The notes under the pieces were generated by a model, which did no database searches, was not told where the DNA came from, and saw nothing but the letters and a program-made list of their open reading frames with translations. From a virus, in the IMG/VR virus record IMGVR_UViG_3300009502_000036, positions 1 through 64,000 of that record: a stretch of 64,000 bases of DNA. One strand, written 5' to 3'. Positions 32,786-40,809 of this stretch are shown in pieces. The translations under genes were made by a program, and so were the position numbers. Each line of letters begins with the position of its first letter. Positions within the stretch are counted from its first letter, which is position 1.

Positions 32786-33388
32786 ATGAATGTATCACAT
32801 ATTCGAAAAAAATGGAGTACATATCTCCTAGGCGCATTGACCCTAATAACCTTTATATGGTTTGCGAAAGTAGATTCAGAAGGTAGGGCAGAAACGCTAT
32901 TGAAACAGCCTATTAAAACAATAAACCAAGAACAGCTAGGACCTGTTCAATTAAATGCATTACCGGATTCCATAAAGATTAAGGAACCAGAAAAGAAAAA
33001 GCCAGTTAATAAATCAGAATTAAATTGGTTAGCAAAAAATATTTATCATGAAGCGCGTGGACAGTCTATAAAAGGACAGTATGCAGTTGCAATAGTAACA
33101 CTCAATAGAGTCAAATCTGGAAAATTTCCTGAGTCTATAGAGAAAGTTGTAACTCAACCAGGTCAATTTTCATGGTACCATCATAAAACAATTAATAAAA
33201 TTACAGAGAGCGATTCTTTTGAAATAGCAAAAGAAATAGCAAGAAATGTCCTTGAAGAGAATGGTACTCTTTACAAGGAATCTAATAGTGAATTAAAAGG
33301 AGCACTTTATTTCTGTGAAAAACGTATAAAAACTCCTAAAAATAGAAAGGTTACTGCTAGAATAGGGAGTCATATTTTCTATATATGA
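32786..33388 (+). CDS. SleB-like cell wall hydrolase (Hydrolase_2) with N-terminal membrane anchor
   Basis: LAKNIYHEARGQ...AVAIVTLNRV...FP.SI..VV.Q..QFSW, GALYF, IGSHIFY. Confidence 0.9.
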   Translation: MNVSHIRKKWSTYLLGALTLITFIWFAKVDSEGRAETLLKQPIKTINQEQLGPVQLNALPDSIKIKEPEKKKPVNKSELNWLAKNIYHEARGQSIKGQYAVAIVTLNRVKSGKFPESIEKVVTQPGQFSWYHHKTINKITESDSFEIAKEIARNVLEENGTLYKESNSELKGALYFCEKRIKTPKNRKVTARIGSHIFYI

Positions 33389-33411
33389 CATAATATTAAC
33401 AACAAAATTAA

Positions 33412-33636
33412 ATGTTAAAACTAGTTACGCGTGACGAATTTGTTGATGAAATAAATAAAATAATTTTTAACGATGGTTGTTCTGTTATTGAAGCAATTTG
33501 TGAGTATGCAGAATCTAATGATATAGAATATTCCAAATTGGTTCCTTTTATCAATGCAACATTTAAAAATTCAATTATTTTTGAGGCCGAACAGAGAAAT
33601 ATGATGAAAAAGCAAAATGGACAATTACCAATCTGA
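33412..33636 (+). CDS. gp33: late transcription coactivator gp33
   Basis: Size, IEAICEYAE..DIE, EAEQRNMMK...LPI; synteny 33-59-32. Confidence 0.75.
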   Translation: MLKLVTRDEFVDEINKIIFNDGCSVIEAICEYAESNDIEYSKLVPFINATFKNSIIFEAEQRNMMKKQNGQLPI

Positions 33637-34306
33637 ACACTCTGAAAAGGGATTGTTCGTTTATGAGATGTATTCTGCTATAAAATTGCATTTCACTTCT
33701 AATTATGACTTCTTCAAGTACCACGGAAAAACAAAGTCTTCGGTAAAAAATCGAGAAGATATGAATATGTTTATTCAATCAAAAAACTTTAAATTATCCG
33801 TGGGACTTGCAAAGAAGATTAAAACTGAGGATGCGATTATAGAATTTCTTATAGCAAATATATTAAAAAATAATAAAATATGGTTAAACGATTTATTAAG
33901 TGATGAAGCAGAAGATGAATGGATTAAATGGAAACGAACTCAAAATTCTCTTACATATAATTTTATTACAGATGTGAAGTGGATTTTAAGTAACAATTTG
34001 AAGTTTAATTCCTATCTAGATGCTACTAAAGGAGTACCTCCAATTTTAGAATTTCTTTTGCATGATAAAATCAAGATAGAAACAGTTGTTATTATTGATT
34101 GGTTAACCGGATTTCTTAAACAGAAAGTTCTTAAAGACAAAAATTTTACTATATTTTCTAATATTATAATAAATATAGAAAAGTATAAACCTTTATTTTT
34201 ACATTATCATAATTTTTATGATAGAGATAAATTGAAGTTTAAAAAAATTCTTCTAGAGAAGATAAACATTCAAAAAGAGCAAACAGAAAATATTTTGCCC
34301 TTTTAA
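33617..34306 (+). CDS. gp59: helicase loader gp59
   Basis: Y.AIKLHFT..YDFFKYHGK, P.IL...L...I.IET. Confidence 0.88.
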   Translation: MDNYQSEHSEKGLFVYEMYSAIKLHFTSNYDFFKYHGKTKSSVKNREDMNMFIQSKNFKLSVGLAKKIKTEDAIIEFLIANILKNNKIWLNDLLSDEAEDEWIKWKRTQNSLTYNFITDVKWILSNNLKFNSYLDATKGVPPILEFLLHDKIKIETVVIIDWLTGFLKQKVLKDKNFTIFSNIIINIEKYKPLFLHYHNFYDRDKLKFKKILLEKINIQKEQTENILPF

Positions 34307-34369
34307 ACGAAATTTATATAATGAGAATATGTGGATAAAACAACATACAAACACATAGTACATACAAAA

Positions 34370-35254
34370 ATGACGACGACAACATTCGCAGATTTAAAAA
34401 AATCACGCAAGAGTAATTTCGACGAACTTACAAAAAAAGTCGAACAGTTAATTTCTCCTACAAGAGAATCTTTTTCAGATGATCGATTTTGGGTACCTAC
34501 AATTGACAAAGCTGGCAATGGTTACAATGTAATCAGATTTCTTCCTGCAAAGGCTGGAGAAAGTTATCCATGGATTAGTTATTTTGATCATGGATTTCAA
34601 GGACCAACCGGATTATGGTACATCGAAAAATCTTTAACAACAATTGGTGGACAAGATCCATTGGGTGACTATAATTCCAAACTTTGGAATTCTGGTGTAG
34701 AAGCAAATAAGGAACAAGCTAGAAAACAGAAAAGGCGTCTTCATTATGTTTCTAACATTTACGTTGTTAGTGATTCTGCACATCCAGAAAATGAAGGGAA
34801 AATTTTCCTATTTCAATATGGCAAAAAGCTTTTCCAGAAGATTAATGAAGCTATGAATCCACAGTATGAAGATGAAACTCCAATTAACCCATTTGACTTC
34901 TGGGAAGGAGCAAATTTCAAACTAAAAATTCGTAACTATGAAGGCTATCGTAATTATGATAAATCAGAGTTTGATACTACAGGTCCTTTGTTTGATGATG
35001 ACAAAAAGTTGGAAAAAATATATAATGATCTTTATAGTTTAAGTGACTTCTTGGATCCTAAAAATTTCAAGACATATGAAGAACTAGAAAAGAAACTGAA
35101 TAAAGTTCTATTCTTGGAAGATAATGAACCAAGACAGAAAGCAGAAGTACCTACACCACAAGAAAGCCGTAGGTCTATTAATGACAAAATACAAGATGAT
35201 GACGATGATTCTATTGATACTGACTTCTTTAAGCGATTAGCTCAGGAAGATTAA
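34370..35254 (+). CDS. gp32: single-stranded DNA-binding protein gp32
   Basis: DDRFW.P..DKAGNG..VIRFLP, HGFQGPTGLWYIE, PFDFWEGANFKLKIR, acidic tail; ATG 34370 preferred to GTG 34331. Confidence 0.97.
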   Translation: MTTTTFADLKKSRKSNFDELTKKVEQLISPTRESFSDDRFWVPTIDKAGNGYNVIRFLPAKAGESYPWISYFDHGFQGPTGLWYIEKSLTTIGGQDPLGDYNSKLWNSGVEANKEQARKQKRRLHYVSNIYVVSDSAHPENEGKIFLFQYGKKLFQKINEAMNPQYEDETPINPFDFWEGANFKLKIRNYEGYRNYDKSEFDTTGPLFDDDKKLEKIYNDLYSLSDFLDPKNFKTYEELEKKLNKVLFLEDNEPRQKAEVPTPQESRRSINDKIQDDDDDSIDTDFFKRLAQED

Positions 35255-35266
35255 TACTTATCATTC

Positions 35267-35294
35267 AAAGGGGTAGAATATTCTATCCCTTTTT
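35267..35294 (+). terminator. rho-independent terminator after gene 32
   Basis: AAAGGGGTAGAA-TA-TTCTATCCCTTTTT. Confidence 0.75.
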
Positions 35295-35313
35295 ATTATG
35301 AAAATATGGAAAA

Positions 35314-36315
35314 ATGTTTAACAAAGAATTTGGTGAGCAAAAAGCACTTCTAAGAGAATTTAACATTCCCGAATGTATTCTTAAAAAATATAACGAGCAT
35401 CATAGATTCTATCATAATCAAAATCATATCAATGATTTGTGGATTAAAGGTAGCAAAATGATTACTAAACATGACATTGGTGTACCGTATGATCTAGGAT
35501 TAGCAATTATTTTTCATGATATTATATATGATCCAAAATCAAAGGATAATGAAAAGAAAAGTGCAGAATTTTTAATGTCTTTTGCTAAGAATGACAAATT
35601 TCCAACTAGCAGATATGATATTTTTATAAGAGCATATAATGCCATTCTAGATACAGAGAATCACGAACCAAAGACTGAATTGGGTAAAGTTTTATGTGAA
35701 ATAGATGTTAGTTCTCTTCATGAAGACTTTGATGTTCTTCTAAAAAATGAGGAACTTATAGCAAAAGAATATCAATATTTACCTTATGAAAAATACGTAA
35801 GTGGAAGAATAAATTTTTTAATTGAGTTCTATAAAAATAACATCGATTTAGGAAAGGTGTTTAATTCTTATATTTCCTTCGTAAAAAATAAAAAGCCTAA
35901 TATTGGACTTTATGCAGGTACCTTTAATCCGTTTCATAAAGGGCATCTTAATATTTTAGAGAAGGCGGAGAAAATATTCGATAAGGTTATTATTTTATAC
36001 GGCAATAATACAGCTAAAGATAATTCTATTACTAAAATTGTTCCTAAGTATATAGAAAATAGAGAAATAGTTCATCATAGCGGTTTATTGGTAGATTATA
36101 TCAATTCATTACCTTATGATGTTACTCTTATAAGAGGACTAAGAAATACTACAGATTTGCAAGCAGAATTAAATCTTTATAGATTTTTGAATGATATGAA
36201 ACCTGATATTAAAATTATTAATATTTTTTGCGATGCAGAATGCGAACATATTTCTAGTAGTTCTTTAAAGGAAATAGAAAAATTTACGTCTATTAAAAAT
36301 TACATTGTAGAATGA
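35314..36315 (+). CDS. HD-domain phosphohydrolase fused to CoaD-like (HxGH) nucleotidyltransferase
   Basis: HRFYHNQNHI and FHDIIY (HD); YAGTFNPFHKGH, LIRGLRNTTD, HISSS (PPAT-like). Confidence 0.85.
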   Translation: MFNKEFGEQKALLREFNIPECILKKYNEHHRFYHNQNHINDLWIKGSKMITKHDIGVPYDLGLAIIFHDIIYDPKSKDNEKKSAEFLMSFAKNDKFPTSRYDIFIRAYNAILDTENHEPKTELGKVLCEIDVSSLHEDFDVLLKNEELIAKEYQYLPYEKYVSGRINFLIEFYKNNIDLGKVFNSYISFVKNKKPNIGLYAGTFNPFHKGHLNILEKAEKIFDKVIILYGNNTAKDNSITKIVPKYIENREIVHHSGLLVDYINSLPYDVTLIRGLRNTTDLQAELNLYRFLNDMKPDIKIINIFCDAECEHISSSSLKEIEKFTSIKNYIVE

Positions 36316-36437
36316 AATATAAAACAGATAACATAGTGAAATATATACCGAATCTGCTTCTAAGTTTTTATTGTAGTCACAAATATAGAAATATAACATT
36401 ACTATTAATAAAATTAGACTGGATTTTAGTAAGATGA
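36312..36437 (+). CDS. microprotein array unit 1 (41 aa)
   Basis: MKYKTDNIVKYIPNLLLSFYCSHKYRNITLLLIKLDWILVR*; ATGA overlaps on both sides. Confidence 0.7.
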   Translation: MKYKTDNIVKYIPNLLLSFYCSHKYRNITLLLIKLDWILVR

Positions 36438-36584
36438 AATATAATGTTCATACCGTAAATTATGCAATTCATAATGCTTATTTTTGGAGTGTTTAGTATA
36501 GATTTTTATAATTTTTATATCAAATTGTATTATTATTATGCAATTATTTTTAAACATCAGATCAAAAACTTAATTGTTAGATGA
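36434..36584 (+). pseudogene. microprotein array unit 2 (frameshift in T5)
   Basis: MKYNVHTVNYAIHNAYF; removing one T at 36481-36485 gives GVFSIDFYNFYIKLYYYYAIIFKHQIKNLIVR*. Confidence 0.65.
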
Positions 36585-36730
36585 ACTATAACATACATAC
36601 AGTGTTATGAAAGTTGGAATGGGGGACAATGTTATATGTTTGAAGGTGAGTTTAACTATCAGAAAAATACCATTTACAATAGTATAATAAAAAATGATTA
36701 ATACGATTAAATTTCTACACTAGAAAATGA
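36581..36730 (+). pseudogene. microprotein array unit 3 (degenerate)
   Basis: MNYNIHTVL* followed by broken frames; unit-length spacing to the next ATGA at 36727. Confidence 0.5.
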
Positions 36731-36888
36731 AACATTATAAGACGGGATTAATTTTTAGTAAAAATTTATGTTATTTTGATAAAGAACTTCTTAGAAATGA
36801 AATTTTTTCTAGTGTTCCTATTTGGATTATTTTTAATGGTGTAAGTGTTAGAAGAATGGAATTATTTTTTAATCTTTTAGCTCAATGA
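36727..36888 (+). CDS. microprotein array unit 4 (53 aa)
   Basis: MKHYKTGLIFSKNLCYFDKELLRNEIFSSVPIWIIFNGVSVRRMELFFNLLAQ*. Confidence 0.65.
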   Translation: MKHYKTGLIFSKNLCYFDKELLRNEIFSSVPIWIIFNGVSVRRMELFFNLLAQ

Positions 36889-37031
36889 AACAATATAGAA
36901 TTAAACAACACAATGTTTTTCTGGGAGGTTGTTATTGGGAAGTTGGTGAATTATTATTACCGTCTGATATCCAACTTACCTTTCCTTTACGAAAATATTT
37001 AAATCTAAAATTTGGTTTAATTTTAATATAA
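36885..37031 (+). CDS. microprotein array unit 5 (48 aa)
   Basis: MKQYRIKQHNVFLGGCYWEVGELLLPSDIQLTFPLRKYLNLKFGLILI*; TAATG overlap with unit 6. Confidence 0.65.
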   Translation: MKQYRIKQHNVFLGGCYWEVGELLLPSDIQLTFPLRKYLNLKFGLILI

Positions 37032-37213
37032 TGAAATATAATGTTCGTAGTAAGATGAAATATAATATAGATGCGATTCCGATTTATTTCAATTTTCATA
37101 TTTTTTGTTCAATTTATCCTCGGCATGAATTGGGTTCGATAATAAACAATCTTTCAATTCTATACTTTCTTGTAAATATAACAGATCTACTTGATAAGAC
37201 CAAAATAAGATGA
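37031..37213 (+). CDS. microprotein array unit 6 (60 aa, duplicated start)
   Basis: MKYNVRSK-MKYNIDA...TKIR*. Confidence 0.65.
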   Translation: MKYNVRSKMKYNIDAIPIYFNFHIFCSIYPRHELGSIINNLSILYFLVNITDLLDKTKIR

Positions 37214-37404
37214 AAAAATATAACACAGAAAAAATAAATCGTAATATTACGAGAATATATTCTATAGTATTTCGCGACTCTAATTATTATTTTATTAAGT
37301 TTCAAAATCAATTAATTTACACCAGATACGGTATACCATGTCTATGGTTAGAAGAACTTGAACGTGATCTTTATCAATCTAGATGTTTTAATGTAGACTT
37401 TTAA
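37210..37404 (+). CDS. microprotein array unit 7 (64 aa)
   Basis: MKKYNTEKINRNI...FNVDF*. Confidence 0.65.
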   Translation: MKKYNTEKINRNITRIYSIVFRDSNYYFIKFQNQLIYTRYGIPCLWLEELERDLYQSRCFNVDF

Positions 37405-37407
37405 AAA

Positions 37408-37560
37408 ATGAAATATAATATTAACACAGTAAATGAAAATTTAAAAGCTAGCATTCTAGTAGATTTTTTCTATTCGGATTTCATGTCTTTCGCTCATATA
37501 TTCAAAAATCCAGAATATAAATTACTATTAGAAAAATTTCCCGGGATTTTAGTAAGATGA
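37408..37560 (+). CDS. microprotein array unit 8 (50 aa)
   Basis: MKYNINTVNENLKASILVDFFYSDFMSFAHIFKNPEYKLLLEKFPGILVR*. Confidence 0.7.
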   Translation: MKYNINTVNENLKASILVDFFYSDFMSFAHIFKNPEYKLLLEKFPGILVR

Positions 37561-37715
37561 AATACGATATTAACAATATAAATATATTTCTAGGAGAGAA
37601 TTTGCATCCAATTAAAAGTTTTTATTCGAATTTTAGATTTTATATGGATAAATATAGAAATATACCAGAACATGTATTGCTATCAATAAAACTAAACCAG
37701 ATTTTAGTAAGATGA
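37557..37715 (+). CDS. microprotein array unit 9 (52 aa)
   Basis: MKYDINNINIFLGENLHPIKSFYSNFRFYMDKYRNIPEHVLLSIKLNQILVR*. Confidence 0.7.
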   Translation: MKYDINNINIFLGENLHPIKSFYSNFRFYMDKYRNIPEHVLLSIKLNQILVR

Positions 37716-37831
37716 AATACGATATTAACAATATAAATAATAAAATAACGGGTGATTGGTCACCTTATGATTTTGCTTTTGATATTTTAGCATTTGAAAT
37801 TAAAGTTTATTTACAAAATTGGATCATATGA
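37712..37831 (+). CDS. microprotein array unit 10 (39 aa)
   Basis: MKYDINNINNKITGDWSPYDFAFDILAFEIKVYLQNWII*. Confidence 0.7.
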   Translation: MKYDINNINNKITGDWSPYDFAFDILAFEIKVYLQNWII

Positions 37832-37980
37832 CGAATAACTATAACACGAAAAACATAAATTATGAAATTCATAGTAATATCTGTAATAAAAGGTTTGGAA
37901 TGCCTTTAATTGGCGATTTTGTATATGAAATATATTTAGCAATAAGTAGTTCGGTATATTTACCATATATAGTTAGATGA
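37828..37980 (+). CDS. microprotein array unit 11 (50 aa)
   Basis: MTNNYNTKNINYEIHSNICNKRFGMPLIGDFVYEIYLAISSSVYLPYIVR*; ATGA overlap with the glycosyltransferase. Confidence 0.7.
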   Translation: MTNNYNTKNINYEIHSNICNKRFGMPLIGDFVYEIYLAISSSVYLPYIVR

Positions 37981-38546
37981 TACATACATTTATACCTTAT
38001 GCGCACCGATCAGAGAATAAAAATCTTGGCGCAGTTTATAATCGATATATGAATATGATTAACGATGACGATTGGGCATGTTTTTTAGATGCAGATGCAA
38101 TGTTTACGACATCTGATTATCATGAGCAATTAGAAACTATTACAACTGCTATAGATTCAAAGAATTTAAATGTTGGTCTATTAACTGCAGTTACGAATAG
38201 AATAGGTAATGTTGAACAAATCGTATTTTCTAAAGATTCCGACGATGCTTATAATCATGATTTTTCTTTTCATAGAAAAATAGGAAAAAATTTACAGGAA
38301 AAAAATAGGTATCTTTTAAAAGAATGCAAAGATCCTATTAGCGGAGTTGTTTTATTATTACCTAAAAGAGTATGGAAACAAACAGAAGGATTTATAAATG
38401 GATTTTTAAGTGTAGATAATCATATCGACTACGCTATAAGAAGAGCTGGTTTTCGTACTTGTATTATGGAAGGATTATATGTCTATCATTGGTATAGAAA
38501 TGATTGGAAAGAAACCAATGGATTAGCTCCTACCGGATATAAATAA
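37977..38546 (+). CDS. GT-A fold (family 2-like) glycosyltransferase
   Basis: KNLGAVYN, WACFLDADAMF (DxD), SGVVLLL.KRVW...GF, GLYVYHWYR. Confidence 0.75.
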   Translation: MIHTFIPYAHRSENKNLGAVYNRYMNMINDDDWACFLDADAMFTTSDYHEQLETITTAIDSKNLNVGLLTAVTNRIGNVEQIVFSKDSDDAYNHDFSFHRKIGKNLQEKNRYLLKECKDPISGVVLLLPKRVWKQTEGFINGFLSVDNHIDYAIRRAGFRTCIMEGLYVYHWYRNDWKETNGLAPTGYK

Positions 38547-38650
38547 AAAATTTCTTATTCTCAAAAAAGTTTCTATATTATAAACATCAAATGAAATAAT
38601 TTTTACAACAAACAACAAACAACAATAACAAAAACAAAACAAAAAACATT

Positions 38651-38854
38651 ATGAAAAAGATCACAATTATTAGCGCTTTCCTTTCTATCATTCTTGCTAG
38701 CGCACCATCTTTTGCTGCAGATACGACTGCACCAGTTACAGCAAAAACAGAAGTAGTAACAGCTAAGAAAGCAATGAAAGCTCCTAAAGTTACAAAAAAG
38801 AAAGTAGTAGCAGCTAAGAAATCAGTGAAGGTTGCAACTCCAACAGTTAAGTAA
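38651..38854 (+). CDS. small secreted Lys/Ala/Val/Thr-rich protein
   Basis: Signal peptide MKKITIISAFLSIILASAPSFA-A; basic low-complexity mature part. Confidence 0.7.
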   Translation: MKKITIISAFLSIILASAPSFAADTTAPVTAKTEVVTAKKAMKAPKVTKKKVVAAKKSVKVATPTVK

Positions 38855-38878
38855 TCAATAACAAAAACAAAAAACATT

Positions 38879-39547
38879 ATGAAAAAAATTACATTTTTAA
38901 TAGCATTGTTTGGGATGTTACTTATGTCTACAGTAACATCTTATGCATCTGATTTGGTAACCTCTGGAAGTGTTGGTGTTTATAGTAGATATTTTGATCA
39001 TGGTTATGATCAAAGTAATGGGAAAGCATTTTCTACTCTTTCTGGTACTGTAGCTTACGACGCACTATCTGTAAGTGTTCTTGCAAAACAGTCTATTTCA
39101 GGACAAAGTGGTTATAATGGAATTGAAGGATCTGTTGATTATGCATTAAGCAAAAATGCTTCTTTCGGTGTAAGATCGTATTCTATTGCTGATGTAAGAA
39201 ATGATCAGGATTTGGATGCTCATATCTCACTTACTGATGGTGCATTTACTATTAATGCAGAAAGAAGAATAGCTGGAATTAACACGTCTGGAACTTATGG
39301 AGAACTTGTTATTACAACTCATCCAATTAAGAATATAGATGTTCAGATTGTTTCTGGTGTAGGTAATAAAATTTATACCGCTAGTAATGATTTGAAATTC
39401 CAACTTGTCAACGAAGCAATAGTTATTAAAACTAATGTTGCTAATGACGTTTCTGTTTTTGGTACCGCGGTTTACAATTCTGCATTGCATCAGACATTCA
39501 AAACAAATGATATTCTTTATGGAGTAGGTCTTTCGGTTAATCTCTAA
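38879..39547 (+). CDS. outer-membrane beta-barrel protein (TorF-like putative porin)
   Basis: Signal peptide; VYSRYFDHGYDQ N-terminal motif; alternating beta strands; C-terminal YGVGLSVNL beta signal. Confidence 0.65.
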   Translation: MKKITFLIALFGMLLMSTVTSYASDLVTSGSVGVYSRYFDHGYDQSNGKAFSTLSGTVAYDALSVSVLAKQSISGQSGYNGIEGSVDYALSKNASFGVRSYSIADVRNDQDLDAHISLTDGAFTINAERRIAGINTSGTYGELVITTHPIKNIDVQIVSGVGNKIYTASNDLKFQLVNEAIVIKTNVANDVSVFGTAVYNSALHQTFKTNDILYGVGLSVNL

Positions 39548-39567
39548 AAAGAACTTTAGTATATCAA

Positions 39568-39602
39568 AGAAATGGCTCCTAATAGGAGCCATTTCTGTTT
39601 TT
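39568..39602 (+). terminator. rho-independent terminator
   Basis: AGAAATGGCTCCT-AAT-AGGAGCCATTTCT followed by GTTTTT. Confidence 0.85.
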
Positions 39603-39620
39603 ATTGCAATTATATAATTT

Positions 39621-39628
39621 TATAAATA
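39621..39628 (+). promoter_or_regulatory. T4 late promoter
   Basis: TATAAATA upstream of the lysis cassette; another at 40056-40063. Confidence 0.7.
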
Positions 39629-39664
39629 GAAATAATATTATATAACAATAAAAAGGAGGATTAT

Positions 39665-40060
39665 ATGCCTACAGATACAGATTTGCTAAGTGGAATATAT
39701 TCAGCAATAATTAATTCTTTGTCTATACCATATATAGTTTCTACAAATATTCTCATCTATTTAATTATCAAATTTATAGATTATTTAAATAAAGAGAAAT
39801 ATGTTCCCGGAATAACAAAAAAGATTATAACTGCTATAGTCGGTCTTAGTATGGGAATTTTATTTCATTTTATAGGAACCACAACGACAGAAGTTCTTAT
39901 AACATCTTTCTTAGTTGTTCCCTTTTCTTATAAATATATAATCAAATATATTTTAAAAACATTTGGTGTTTATTATAGAGATTTACCAGGAAAAACTGAA
40001 GAAGAAGACAAAAAGGCAGCAGATGATGCAATGAATAGTGATTCAAATATAAATTTATAA
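39665..40060 (+). CDS. putative holin
   Basis: About three hydrophobic segments and a charged C-tail; directly upstream of the endolysin; AGGAGG RBS. Confidence 0.55.
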   Translation: MPTDTDLLSGIYSAIINSLSIPYIVSTNILIYLIIKFIDYLNKEKYVPGITKKIITAIVGLSMGILFHFIGTTTTEVLITSFLVVPFSYKYIIKYILKTFGVYYRDLPGKTEEEDKKAADDAMNSDSNINL

Positions 40061-40191
40061 ATAATTCACGCTTTAATATTTAACTTTGTAAATCAATACT
40101 ATAGACAGTAGCATCATTTTAAACTATTGGTGCTACTGTCTGTTTATTAAGAAAATTACATAATTAATAACAATCCTCATATTTAAAATAA

Positions 40192-40809
40192 ATGGATTTT
40201 TTAACAAAAGAAAAACTTGAAAAGATAATTATAGGTAATAGTCATATAGATAATTGGTTTTTAGCACTCATTACTATATTACCAAAATATGAAATAAACA
40301 CTATTATTAGAGTAGGAGCATTTTTAGCTCAAACTGCACATGAAAGTGGTAATTATATGATTATAAAGGAAAATTTAAATTATAGAGCTGCTGCACTTAT
40401 GACAGTTTTTAGAAAATATTTTCCTACAATAGAAATGGCTACAGCTTATGAACATAAGCCTGAAAAAATTGCTAATAGAGTATATGCTAATAGAATAGGA
40501 AATGGACCTGAAACTTCTGGTGATGGATTTAAGTTCTGTGGAAGAGGTTTAATTCAATTGACTGGTAAAAGTAACTATACTGCTTTTGCTAAATGTATAG
40601 GAAAGTCGGTAGATGAAACAATACTTTATATGGAAACTCCTACGGGTGCATTGGAGAGTGCATGTTGGTATTGGAAAGAAAATAATCTAAATATCTACGC
40701 AGATTCTAAGGATATCAAAACAATGTCTATACGAATAAATGGAGGTACTATAGGTCTAGATGATCGTATAGCACGTTACAATAAAGCAATACAAATATTG
40801 GAGGCTTAA
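40192..40809 (+). CDS. GH19 (chitinase-like) endolysin
   Basis: AFLAQTAHESG, ENLNY, IANRVYANRIGNG, GDG.KF.GRGLIQLTGKSNY, INGG..GL.DR. Confidence 0.93.
   Translation: MDFLTKEKLEKIIIGNSHIDNWFLALITILPKYEINTIIRVGAFLAQTAHESGNYMIIKENLNYRAAALMTVFRKYFPTIEMATAYEHKPEKIANRVYANRIGNGPETSGDGFKFCGRGLIQLTGKSNYTAFAKCIGKSVDETILYMETPTGALESACWYWKENNLNIYADSKDIKTMSIRINGGTIGLDDRIARYNKAIQILEA

Follow-up and report, generated by a model that had tools for sequence, protein, structure and literature searches.

A tandem array of overlapping micro-genes sharing a stop/start junction in a freshwater T4-like phage

We describe an array of eleven very small genes in a stretch of viral DNA of 64,000 nucleotides (nt), positions 1 to 64,000 of IMG/VR record IMGVR_UViG_3300009502_000036, hereafter called the window. 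The contig from which it comes measures 78 kb, of which the window makes up the initial 64 kb, and is estimated to be about 38% complete; the source is an uncultured freshwater (lake) T4-like phage. The array occupies positions 36312-37980 on the + strand, between an HD/CoaD-like gene and a glycosyltransferase gene; nine of its units are open, with 39 to 64 amino acids (aa), and two are frameshifted. We consider it fairly probable that these units form a lineage-specific family of micro-genes, which would have been tandemly amplified in a hyperplastic region and remodelled by crossover at the joint that they share, and whose products would probably be directed at the host. The array belongs to a known kind, that of small orphan genes located in the hyperplastic regions of T4-type phages, where conserved flanking motifs are the sites of shuffling.

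Tiling of the array

The array is made up as follows (positions are those of the window).

36312..36437, + strand: unit 1, 41 aa; starts MKYK, ends ILVR; whole-length paralogue of unit 9
36434..36584, + strand: unit 2, broken; one-base shift in a run of five T; ATGA overlap at its end
36581..36701, + strand: unit 3, broken; head MNYNIHTV, stop after nine codons; +1 frame open for 38 codons
36727..36888, + strand: unit 4, 53 aa; starts MKHYK; divergent, missed by the family profile
36885..37031, + strand: unit 5, 48 aa; starts MKQYR, ends LILI; divergent
37031..37054, + strand: solo junction; head the same as that of unit 2 over 16 nt, then tail-like GTAGTAAGATGA
37055..37213, + strand: unit 6, 52 aa from its own MKYN start; ends KIR
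37210..37404, + strand: unit 7, 64 aa; starts MKKYN; no ILVR end; 3-nt gap after it
37408..37560, + strand: unit 8, 50 aa; starts MKYNINTVN, ends ILVR
37545..37584, + strand: junction repeat copy 1, at the joint of units 8 and 9; 40 nt identical to copy 2
37557..37715, + strand: unit 9, 52 aa; starts MKYDINNIN, ends ILVR
37700..37739, + strand: junction repeat copy 2, at the joint of units 9 and 10; 40 nt identical to copy 1
37712..37831, + strand: unit 10, 39 aa; first nine residues those of unit 9; ends NWII
37828..37980, + strand: unit 11, 50 aa from its ATG; starts MTNNYNTKNIN, ends YIVR

A preliminary description, made from the sequence letters, had claimed eleven tiled units, nine open with 39-64 aa and two broken. 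Reading and translation reproduced this tiling, and the start peptides and the ILVR, LIVR, YIVR or KIR ends are those that it gave. The sizes of the intact units are, in order, 41, 53, 48, 60, 64, 50, 52, 39 and 50 aa, the value of 60 being that of unit 6 when the solo junction is included (37031-37213), with a second ATG at 37055. In unit 2 the head MKYNVHTVN runs in frame 0 to a stop, and the body lies in the +1 frame and ends LIVR. Unit 3 is without the ILVR end, and a 28-nt spacer follows it before unit 4. It had also been said that nearly every stop overlaps the next start. Indeed, 10 of the 12 joints do so through ATGA or, once, TAATG, the joints with the HD/CoaD and glycosyltransferase genes on either side being included in the count; the two that do not overlap are those between units 3 and 4 and between units 7 and 8, at the gaps of 28 and 3 nt.

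The coding character of the stretch is clear from its open reading frames (ORFs). Ten ORFs of at least 39 aa that start with ATG cover 1491 of the 1669 nt (89%) on the + strand, whereas 1000 shuffles that preserve dinucleotides yield on average 0.66 such ORFs (maximum 4), covering 97 nt. Frame 0 is free of stops in nine units and the other two frames hold several stops per unit, at 24% GC, a composition at which about 1 codon in 11 is a stop by chance. The GC content falls from codon position 1 to 3 (0.30, 0.23, 0.18), and the neighbouring genes show the same fall. No chain of at least five coupled small ORFs was found elsewhere in about 0.94 Mb of related T4-like phage loci. Two other ways of reading the stretch were rejected. 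A broken repeat-protein gene or serial programmed frameshifting does not fit, as each unit has its own ATG at the overlap and no slippery heptamer was seen. An alternative code in which TGA is read as Trp would add just six residues to unit 1 before a TAA, and the units would not be fused.

The shared junction and the kinship of the units

The joint has the form ...ATTTTAGTAAG-ATG-AAATAYRAT...; it supplies a unit with its final codons (ILVR) and its stop, and the following unit with its start and initial codons (MKYN or MKYD). The sequence ATTTTAGTAAGATGAAATA is common to the joints of units 1 and 2, 8 and 9, and 9 and 10. An 18-nt pattern of the junction occurs five times, always within the array, where 0.09 occurrences would be expected in the whole window. 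According to the preliminary description, the array was diversified by duplication and by recombination at these junctions. Three marks point to this: the 40-nt identical tract, the solo junction and the mosaic structure of unit 11. The 35 nt that precede the two copies of the 40-nt repeat are about 63% alike, and the sequences that follow them are unrelated; so sharp a boundary between identical and unrelated sequence is, in our view, due to gene conversion or unequal crossover at the joint. The solo junction is, judging from its letters, the footprint of a unit without a core, fused in frame to unit 6.

The third mark involves a gene located downstream of the array.

39665..40060, + strand: ORF 39665, 131 aa; hydrophobic stretches; no known family; first ~25 residues related to the second half of unit 11

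Over 60 nt (37915-37974), unit 11 shows in its second half 78% DNA identity to the 5' end of this ORF (E 6e-8 in a comparison within the genome). An ATGCC common to both opens the in-frame alignment, which stops immediately before the AGATGA of the junction. An orthologue of ORF 39665 from another assembly (P0018, 66% identical) retains the N-terminus related to unit 11. This shows the segment to be native to the ORF 39665 family, which makes unit 11 a mosaic. Its identity of 66% also means that a moderately diverged sister phage exists. A motif scan with ORF 39665 found no relative. A protein from ENA (P0019, 194 aa) aligns to the last ~35 residues of ORF 39665; the part of P0019 that lies N-terminal to this alignment is otherwise unrelated, and P0019 is probably a chimera produced by assembly.

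We then asked how far the units are related to one another. Not one of 80 other ORFs of the contig with a length of 80 aa or more has the MKY start. A leave-one-out profile test on a database of 18,396 ORFs recovered unit 1, the head of unit 2 and units 8, 9 and 10 (E 1e-4 to 8e-3, with 1.4e-4 for unit 1), gave a borderline value for unit 7 (E 0.7), and missed units 4, 5, 6 and 11. The cores were compared after removal of nine N-terminal and four C-terminal residues, which gave 45 pairs. Only units 1 and 9 (z = 4.7), 8 and 9 (3.9), and 10 and 11 (3.7) rose above z = 3; units 2 and 10 (2.9) and units 6 and 9 (2.3) were suggestive, and the mean z over the 45 pairs was 0.2. The middles had been called mostly unalignable, which is accurate, most cores being at the similarity of random sequences. 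The likeness noticed between units 1 and 9 was confirmed by the core score, and these two units are paralogues along their whole length. As for the ends, which had been described as conserved, this holds for the start motif, but the C-terminal end is conserved in about half of the units. The demonstrable paralogues are thus a subset, namely units 1, 2, 8, 9 and 10, plus unit 11 with unit 10. Moreover, the codons of the head vary (TAT or TAC for Tyr3, AAT or AAC for Asn4, and ACA, ACC or ACG at position 7), and this synonymous variation indicates conservation of the head at the peptide level, not at the DNA level alone. The cores have diverged to saturation, yet their frames stay free of stops at 24% GC, which implies selection for open frames.

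The junction carries no Shine-Dalgarno sequence at a usable distance. Five 71-nt windows at array junctions fold at -0.5 to -5.7 kcal/mol. Four of these joints fold more weakly than their shuffles (z from +0.85 to +1.53, with 183, 197, 174 and 163 of 200 shuffles folding at least as well), and the joint of units 9 and 10 is indistinguishable from them (z = -0.47, 54 of 200). The GC content of codons 2-10 is 19% in the units and 30% in the other genes. Such a junction, AT-rich, unstructured and without a Shine-Dalgarno sequence, fits coupling by termination-reinitiation, through which ribosomes would move along the chain of units. In the contig as a whole, motifs of the Shine-Dalgarno type lie upstream of just 16 of 80 gene starts, and stop/start overlaps are found for 12 of 79 genes in the rest of it; together, these figures suggest that the host and the phage start translation mainly on open AT-rich leaders. 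A search for promoter-like sites in 33000-40500 gave 58, a number that equals the 52.7 +/- 6.3 of shuffles and represents no signal above background. The T4 late-promoter motif TATAAATA, which is present inside units 9 and 10, was rejected as a signal, as 21 occurrences in the window, with 19 expected, are no enrichment.

The unit peptides are mostly basic (isoelectric point 7.9-9.7, except for unit 10 at 4.4) and rich in Ile, Leu, Asn, Tyr and Phe. They were rejected as membrane peptides, no 19-residue window exceeding 1.5 on the Kyte-Doolittle scale. A search of the ESM Atlas gave a best score of 0.89, to unnamed clusters, and no lead.

Genomic setting, relatives and population

The T4 core genes of the window include those for gp32, a class II ribonucleotide reductase (RNR)-like protein, a gp59-like helicase loader and a gp5-type tail lysozyme, among others. 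Its gp32 has at most 64% identity to the best 80 of 551 relatives in viral contigs, and 51-62% identity to the gp32 of the best-ranked cyanomyophage records. The hyperplastic region that contains the array separates the replication module (RNR, gp59-like loader, gp32) from the baseplate module. A hypervariable region between replication and structural modules is known from related aquatic T4-like phages (PMC7029224). The GC content is about 30% overall and reaches its minimum in the window, 23.8%, in 36001-38000. The features that surround the array are the following.

35267..35292, + strand: terminator-like hairpin after gp32; 11-pair stem, then a T run; probable upstream limit of the array transcription unit
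35314..36315, + strand: HD phosphohydrolase / CoaD-like adenylyltransferase fusion gene; ends in a TGA that overlaps the unit 1 ATG
37977..38546, + strand: glycosyltransferase (GT2-like) gene; its ATG overlaps the stop of unit 11
39568..39596, + strand: strong terminator-like hairpin; probable downstream limit of the transcription unit

The block between the hairpins at 35267 and 39568, of about 4.3 kb, looks like one transcription unit; it holds the HD/CoaD fusion gene, the array, the glycosyltransferase gene and genes for a 67-aa exported basic peptide and a 222-aa putative exported protein. In the fusion protein, the HD domain corresponds to phrog_19425, and TIGR01510 matches residues 198-331 with 94 bits, the cut-off being 103 bits. 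No relative of the fusion protein was found in scans of viral and metagenome contigs, and the gene is absent from five related viral records. The scan with the glycosyltransferase brought up only an unrelated 45-kb provirus that has no array. Two genes of PHROG endolysin families flank the block of gp59, gp32 and the array, at 32786-33388 and 40192-40809 (phrog_938 at E 1e-20; phrog_181 at E 4e-70).

Relatives of the units were sought widely. The nine intact units (units 2 and 3 left out) gave nothing below E 0.004 or near a curated cut-off in Pfam-A, PHROGs v4 and NCBIfam. A nine-unit profile run on 1.84 billion representative proteins recovered only the phage's own proteins, the one-residue variants P0007 (unit 11) and P0008 (unit 4), and one spurious match, P0013 (270 aa), which was rejected as a relative because it is an HKYRN repeat protein. 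The outcome of a word-indexed search of 5.8 billion clusters was the same, with no relative beyond the own proteins and their variants. Likewise, no relative was found in 80 related T4-like loci, and scans with a junction 23-mer and with the back-translated head motif returned nothing, or chance matches inside a 390-aa gene. A blastn search of phage records gave one 79-nt match. In the profile searches, a kind of check that had been proposed at the outset, the nine intact units matched no known protein family.

The stretch is present in public freshwater and lake metagenome runs from three studies (2016, 2017, 2020). Exact copies of the unit proteins are found on 3 to 110 contigs (JGI, ENA, Logan; the longest of 154 kb), and the only variants seen differ by one residue, such as P0008 and P0012 for unit 4. 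In four runs from the three studies, 35800-37574 and 37710-38500 are without a letter difference or an indel, frameshifts included, apart from 36500-36531, which run X9 leaves uncovered. As the letters are identical in contigs of three independent studies, the sequence is genuine, frameshifts included. The contigs of the runs are interrupted at the 40-nt repeat and nowhere else, as 31-mer graphs lead one to expect, and the loss or doubling of unit 9 across that repeat would go unseen in short-read contigs. The array is therefore invariant over four years at the available resolution, the copy number of unit 9 excepted. The preliminary description had put forward an expandable peptide library; variation of such a library within the population is not supported by these four runs, which are identical over the two segments, and the comparison of unit number and order across samples yielded no variant arrangement in their short-read contigs, which do not span the 40-nt repeat.

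Three other observations were set aside as evidence of turnover. Relative to the flanks, the depth was 0.57-1.06 for the unitig of unit 9 and 0.9-2.0 for that of the 40-nt repeat; a presence/absence polymorphism of unit 9 was not retained, as these figures are mutually inconsistent and contig depths are too coarse. The number of contigs per protein, from 3 for unit 8 to 110 for unit 4, was rejected because contigs break at the repeat near units 8 and 9 and gene calling at contig ends differs. Finally, a joint in run X3 that skips 37439-37855 rests on a side of 21-22 nt and probably belongs to another organism. Concerning unit 3, a 33-nt piece (36639-36671, +1 frame) matches abundant contigs in all four runs with 3 mismatches. 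The source of this piece in JGI/GenBank metagenome contigs (L084 1000-1080; L085 720-1337, - strand) is a bacterial outer-membrane beta-barrel gene (Pfam OMP_b-brl, E 7e-14), in which CYRFEGEFGYQKNT aligns with CYMFEGEFNYQKNT of the open +1 frame of unit 3 at 12 of 14 residues. The match could be due to chance or to a captured fragment. It was rejected as an identity for unit 3, whose peptide hits no Pfam family.

Origin of the array and comparison with known systems

The scenario that we favour is the following. The units are chained by ATGA or TAATG overlaps, from the HD/CoaD-like gene through to the glycosyltransferase gene, inside one terminator-bounded block. The array may grow, shrink or become mosaic through homologous or unequal crossover within the shared junction, and ribosomes would move between units by termination-reinitiation at the open AT-rich start region. 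The conserved ends would be retained partly to keep this coupler working and partly through gene conversion. The products, mostly basic and aromatic-rich non-membrane peptides of 39-64 aa, would belong to a class of small accessory phage proteins binding host components, with a role in takeover, superinfection or interference with defences, the diversity of the paralogues giving breadth. A host-directed function is put forward as the most likely one on the model of other small proteins of phages, many of which bind targets in the host. Several points weigh against this scenario. Units 4, 5, 6 and 11 are tied to the family only through their start motif and position. The residues I, L, N, Y, F and K make up 57% of the total, as AT-biased drift produces, and the AlphaFold model of unit 9, of low confidence (9-row alignment; predicted local distance difference test (pLDDT) score 66.6, two helices) gives no functional hint. 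The family is without relatives in Pfam, PHROGs, NCBIfam and the 1.84 billion representatives. The population was invariant from 2016 to 2020, no ongoing turnover of units being observed. Two of the 11 units are frameshifted with the same breaks in all four runs, and consequently not every unit is needed.

Some of these points would be expected if the array were a neutral by-product, in which unequal crossover in an AT-rich region has spun off functionless, decaying copies and the junction reflects recent gene conversion. The breaks of the two frameshifted units, the drift-like composition at the lowest GC of the window (23.8%) and the absence of relatives from the protein databases all agree with this explanation. 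We nevertheless judge it rather unlikely, as nine units keep frames of 39-64 codons with cores at the random level, when shuffles give 0.66 such ORFs, and as the head motif varies in synonymous codons. A distinct question is where the family came from, and one answer, which we hold to be possible but not likely, is that the final 39 codons of the CoaD-like gene were duplicated in tandem as a partial copy, the units then being degenerate versions of the C-terminal strand and helix of an enzyme and not a separate protein family. Read from an internal Met (36196-36312), the tail of this gene begins MKPDIKIINIF, to be compared with MKYDINNINIF in unit 9, and it ends YIVE-stop with the same ATGA joint; its alignment score of z = 3.9 was reached by 2 of 500 shuffles, and its DNA score against the array was exceeded by 7 of 299 control segments. 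The resemblance is limited to units 9 and 10, though, and was noticed post hoc among 11 units; unit 1, which adjoins the gene, is not the most similar one. Moreover, the family profile misses the CoaD-like gene, and the CoaD profile, run on the tail and on the nine intact units, matches the tail alone (E 0.02).

Two further explanations turn on the constant ends of the peptides. The T4 prohead protease cuts at a site of the L/I-x-E type. The N-terminal head could thus be a targeting tag like the T4 capsid targeting sequence (CTS), the peptides being packed, injected and brought to meet host defences. The layout is the same, a short conserved N-terminal peptide followed by a variable remainder in a T4-like phage, and the heads MKYNINTVNE of unit 8 and MKYDINNINIFLGE of unit 9 end in [LIV]-x-E. 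This site is present in just 3 of the 9 intact units (units 5, 8 and 9, by inspection), however, and unit 1 has no Glu; the units reach at most half the size of the T4 internal proteins, the array is located in a replication-side block where the late-promoter motif TATAAATA is not enriched, and the C-terminal motif is left unexplained, so that we regard such a tag as very unlikely. The other explanation recalls ribosomally synthesized and post-translationally modified peptides (RiPPs), in which a constant leader and follower would flank variable cores modified by the neighbouring glycosyltransferase, the nucleotidyltransferase, or both. Constant ends around variable cores are reminiscent of multi-precursor RiPP loci, and the GT2-like and adenylyltransferase-like genes are translationally chained to the array. 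We find this most improbable. Indeed, no RiPP maturase, leader-recognition, protease or exporter family was found among the genes scanned on either side (gp32, the HD/CoaD-like fusion, the GT2-like glycosyltransferase, the two exported proteins and an endolysin-like gene), the head has just ~9 residues and no cleavage motif, Cys, Ser and Thr are not enriched, and the glycosyltransferase family also occurs in the unrelated 45-kb provirus (L003), which is without the array. Altogether, the units lack the features by which membership of the targeting-tag and RiPP classes was tested, and the neutral explanation keeps weight owing to the broken units and the drift-like composition.

A bolder version of crossover at the shared joint may also be considered, tentatively and with more doubt than belief. 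The junction might be a self-contained cassette joint, a coding sequence of ~25-40 nt that both couples translation and serves as a crossover site, so that, without an integrase, arbitrary coding fragments would be trapped between a constant head and a constant tail and expressed as new microproteins. The 5' end of ORF 39665 in unit 11 would be one such fragment, and the 3' end of the CoaD-like gene possibly another. If this were true, the joint would be a recombination-driven generator of de novo small proteins, and the trapping of foreign fragments would offer a simple route to new genes. The hyperplastic regions of phages are the origin of host-specific weapons and counter-defences, and the genes in these regions are mostly tiny orphans skipped by annotation pipelines. 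Returning to the micro-gene family, the array shows in a compact way how such orphans multiply and become mosaic, one shared sequence acting, in the scenario proposed above, as peptide motif, stop, start and crossover site at once. If the units are translated and active, they would represent a natural set of 40-60-residue binders with a common frame. The array is one small, clonal example.

Translationally coupled overlapping cistrons, in which ATGA or TAATG allows termination-reinitiation, are common in phage operons, and the array joints, where coupling is predicted, have the same overlap geometry. The array differs from ordinary coupled cistrons by its 10 overlaps across genes of 39-64 codons, by an overlap that is itself the family motif, and by the lack of a Shine-Dalgarno sequence. 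Among T4-type phages, the T4 internal proteins have been described as a highly diverse set that counters host defences and shares only the CTS (PMC3012670). Like them, the units have a short conserved N-terminal peptide before a highly variable body. Unlike them, the units carry the prohead-protease site inconsistently, are much smaller, possess a second conserved motif at the C-terminal end, and are arranged as a tandem coupled array at another genomic position. In the cyanophage S-PM2, spontaneous deletion of the 'ORFanage' is reported to facilitate host adaptation, and this region is consequently dispensable (PMC4503421). The ORFanage resembles the array as a block of small genes without homologues in a T4-like aquatic phage (PMC4503421); it differs in that no mention of a single paralogous family with a common stop/start junction was seen for it.

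The closest parallel is provided by the ORFan cassettes of T4-type hyperplastic regions, which are bounded by promoter-early stem-loop (PeSL) motifs (Arbiol et al. 2010, PMC2839356; Comeau et al. 2014, PMC4122927). In both cases, small database-orphan ORFs occupy a hyperplastic region between core modules of T4-like phages, and a short conserved sequence at the ORF boundary is the apparent, and in the array putative, point of homologous exchange, through insertion, deletion or replacement. The PeSL is an intergenic element made of a sigma-70-type promoter and a terminator stem-loop, whereas the array joint is coding and leaves no intergenic space; it consists of the last four and the first nine codons with the overlapping stop and start, and contains no stem-loop and no promoter above background. 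Moreover, the PeSL cassettes hold unrelated ORFans, and at least half of the units of the array are paralogues. The statement of the preliminary description that no described system matches the array must be qualified accordingly: motif-flanked ORFan cassettes were already known (PMC2839356, PMC4122927), but their motifs are intergenic and not coding overlaps. In the papers searched, no coding stop/start joint was found that would be the motif of a gene family and its crossover site at once; in this phage, the joint would play both parts.

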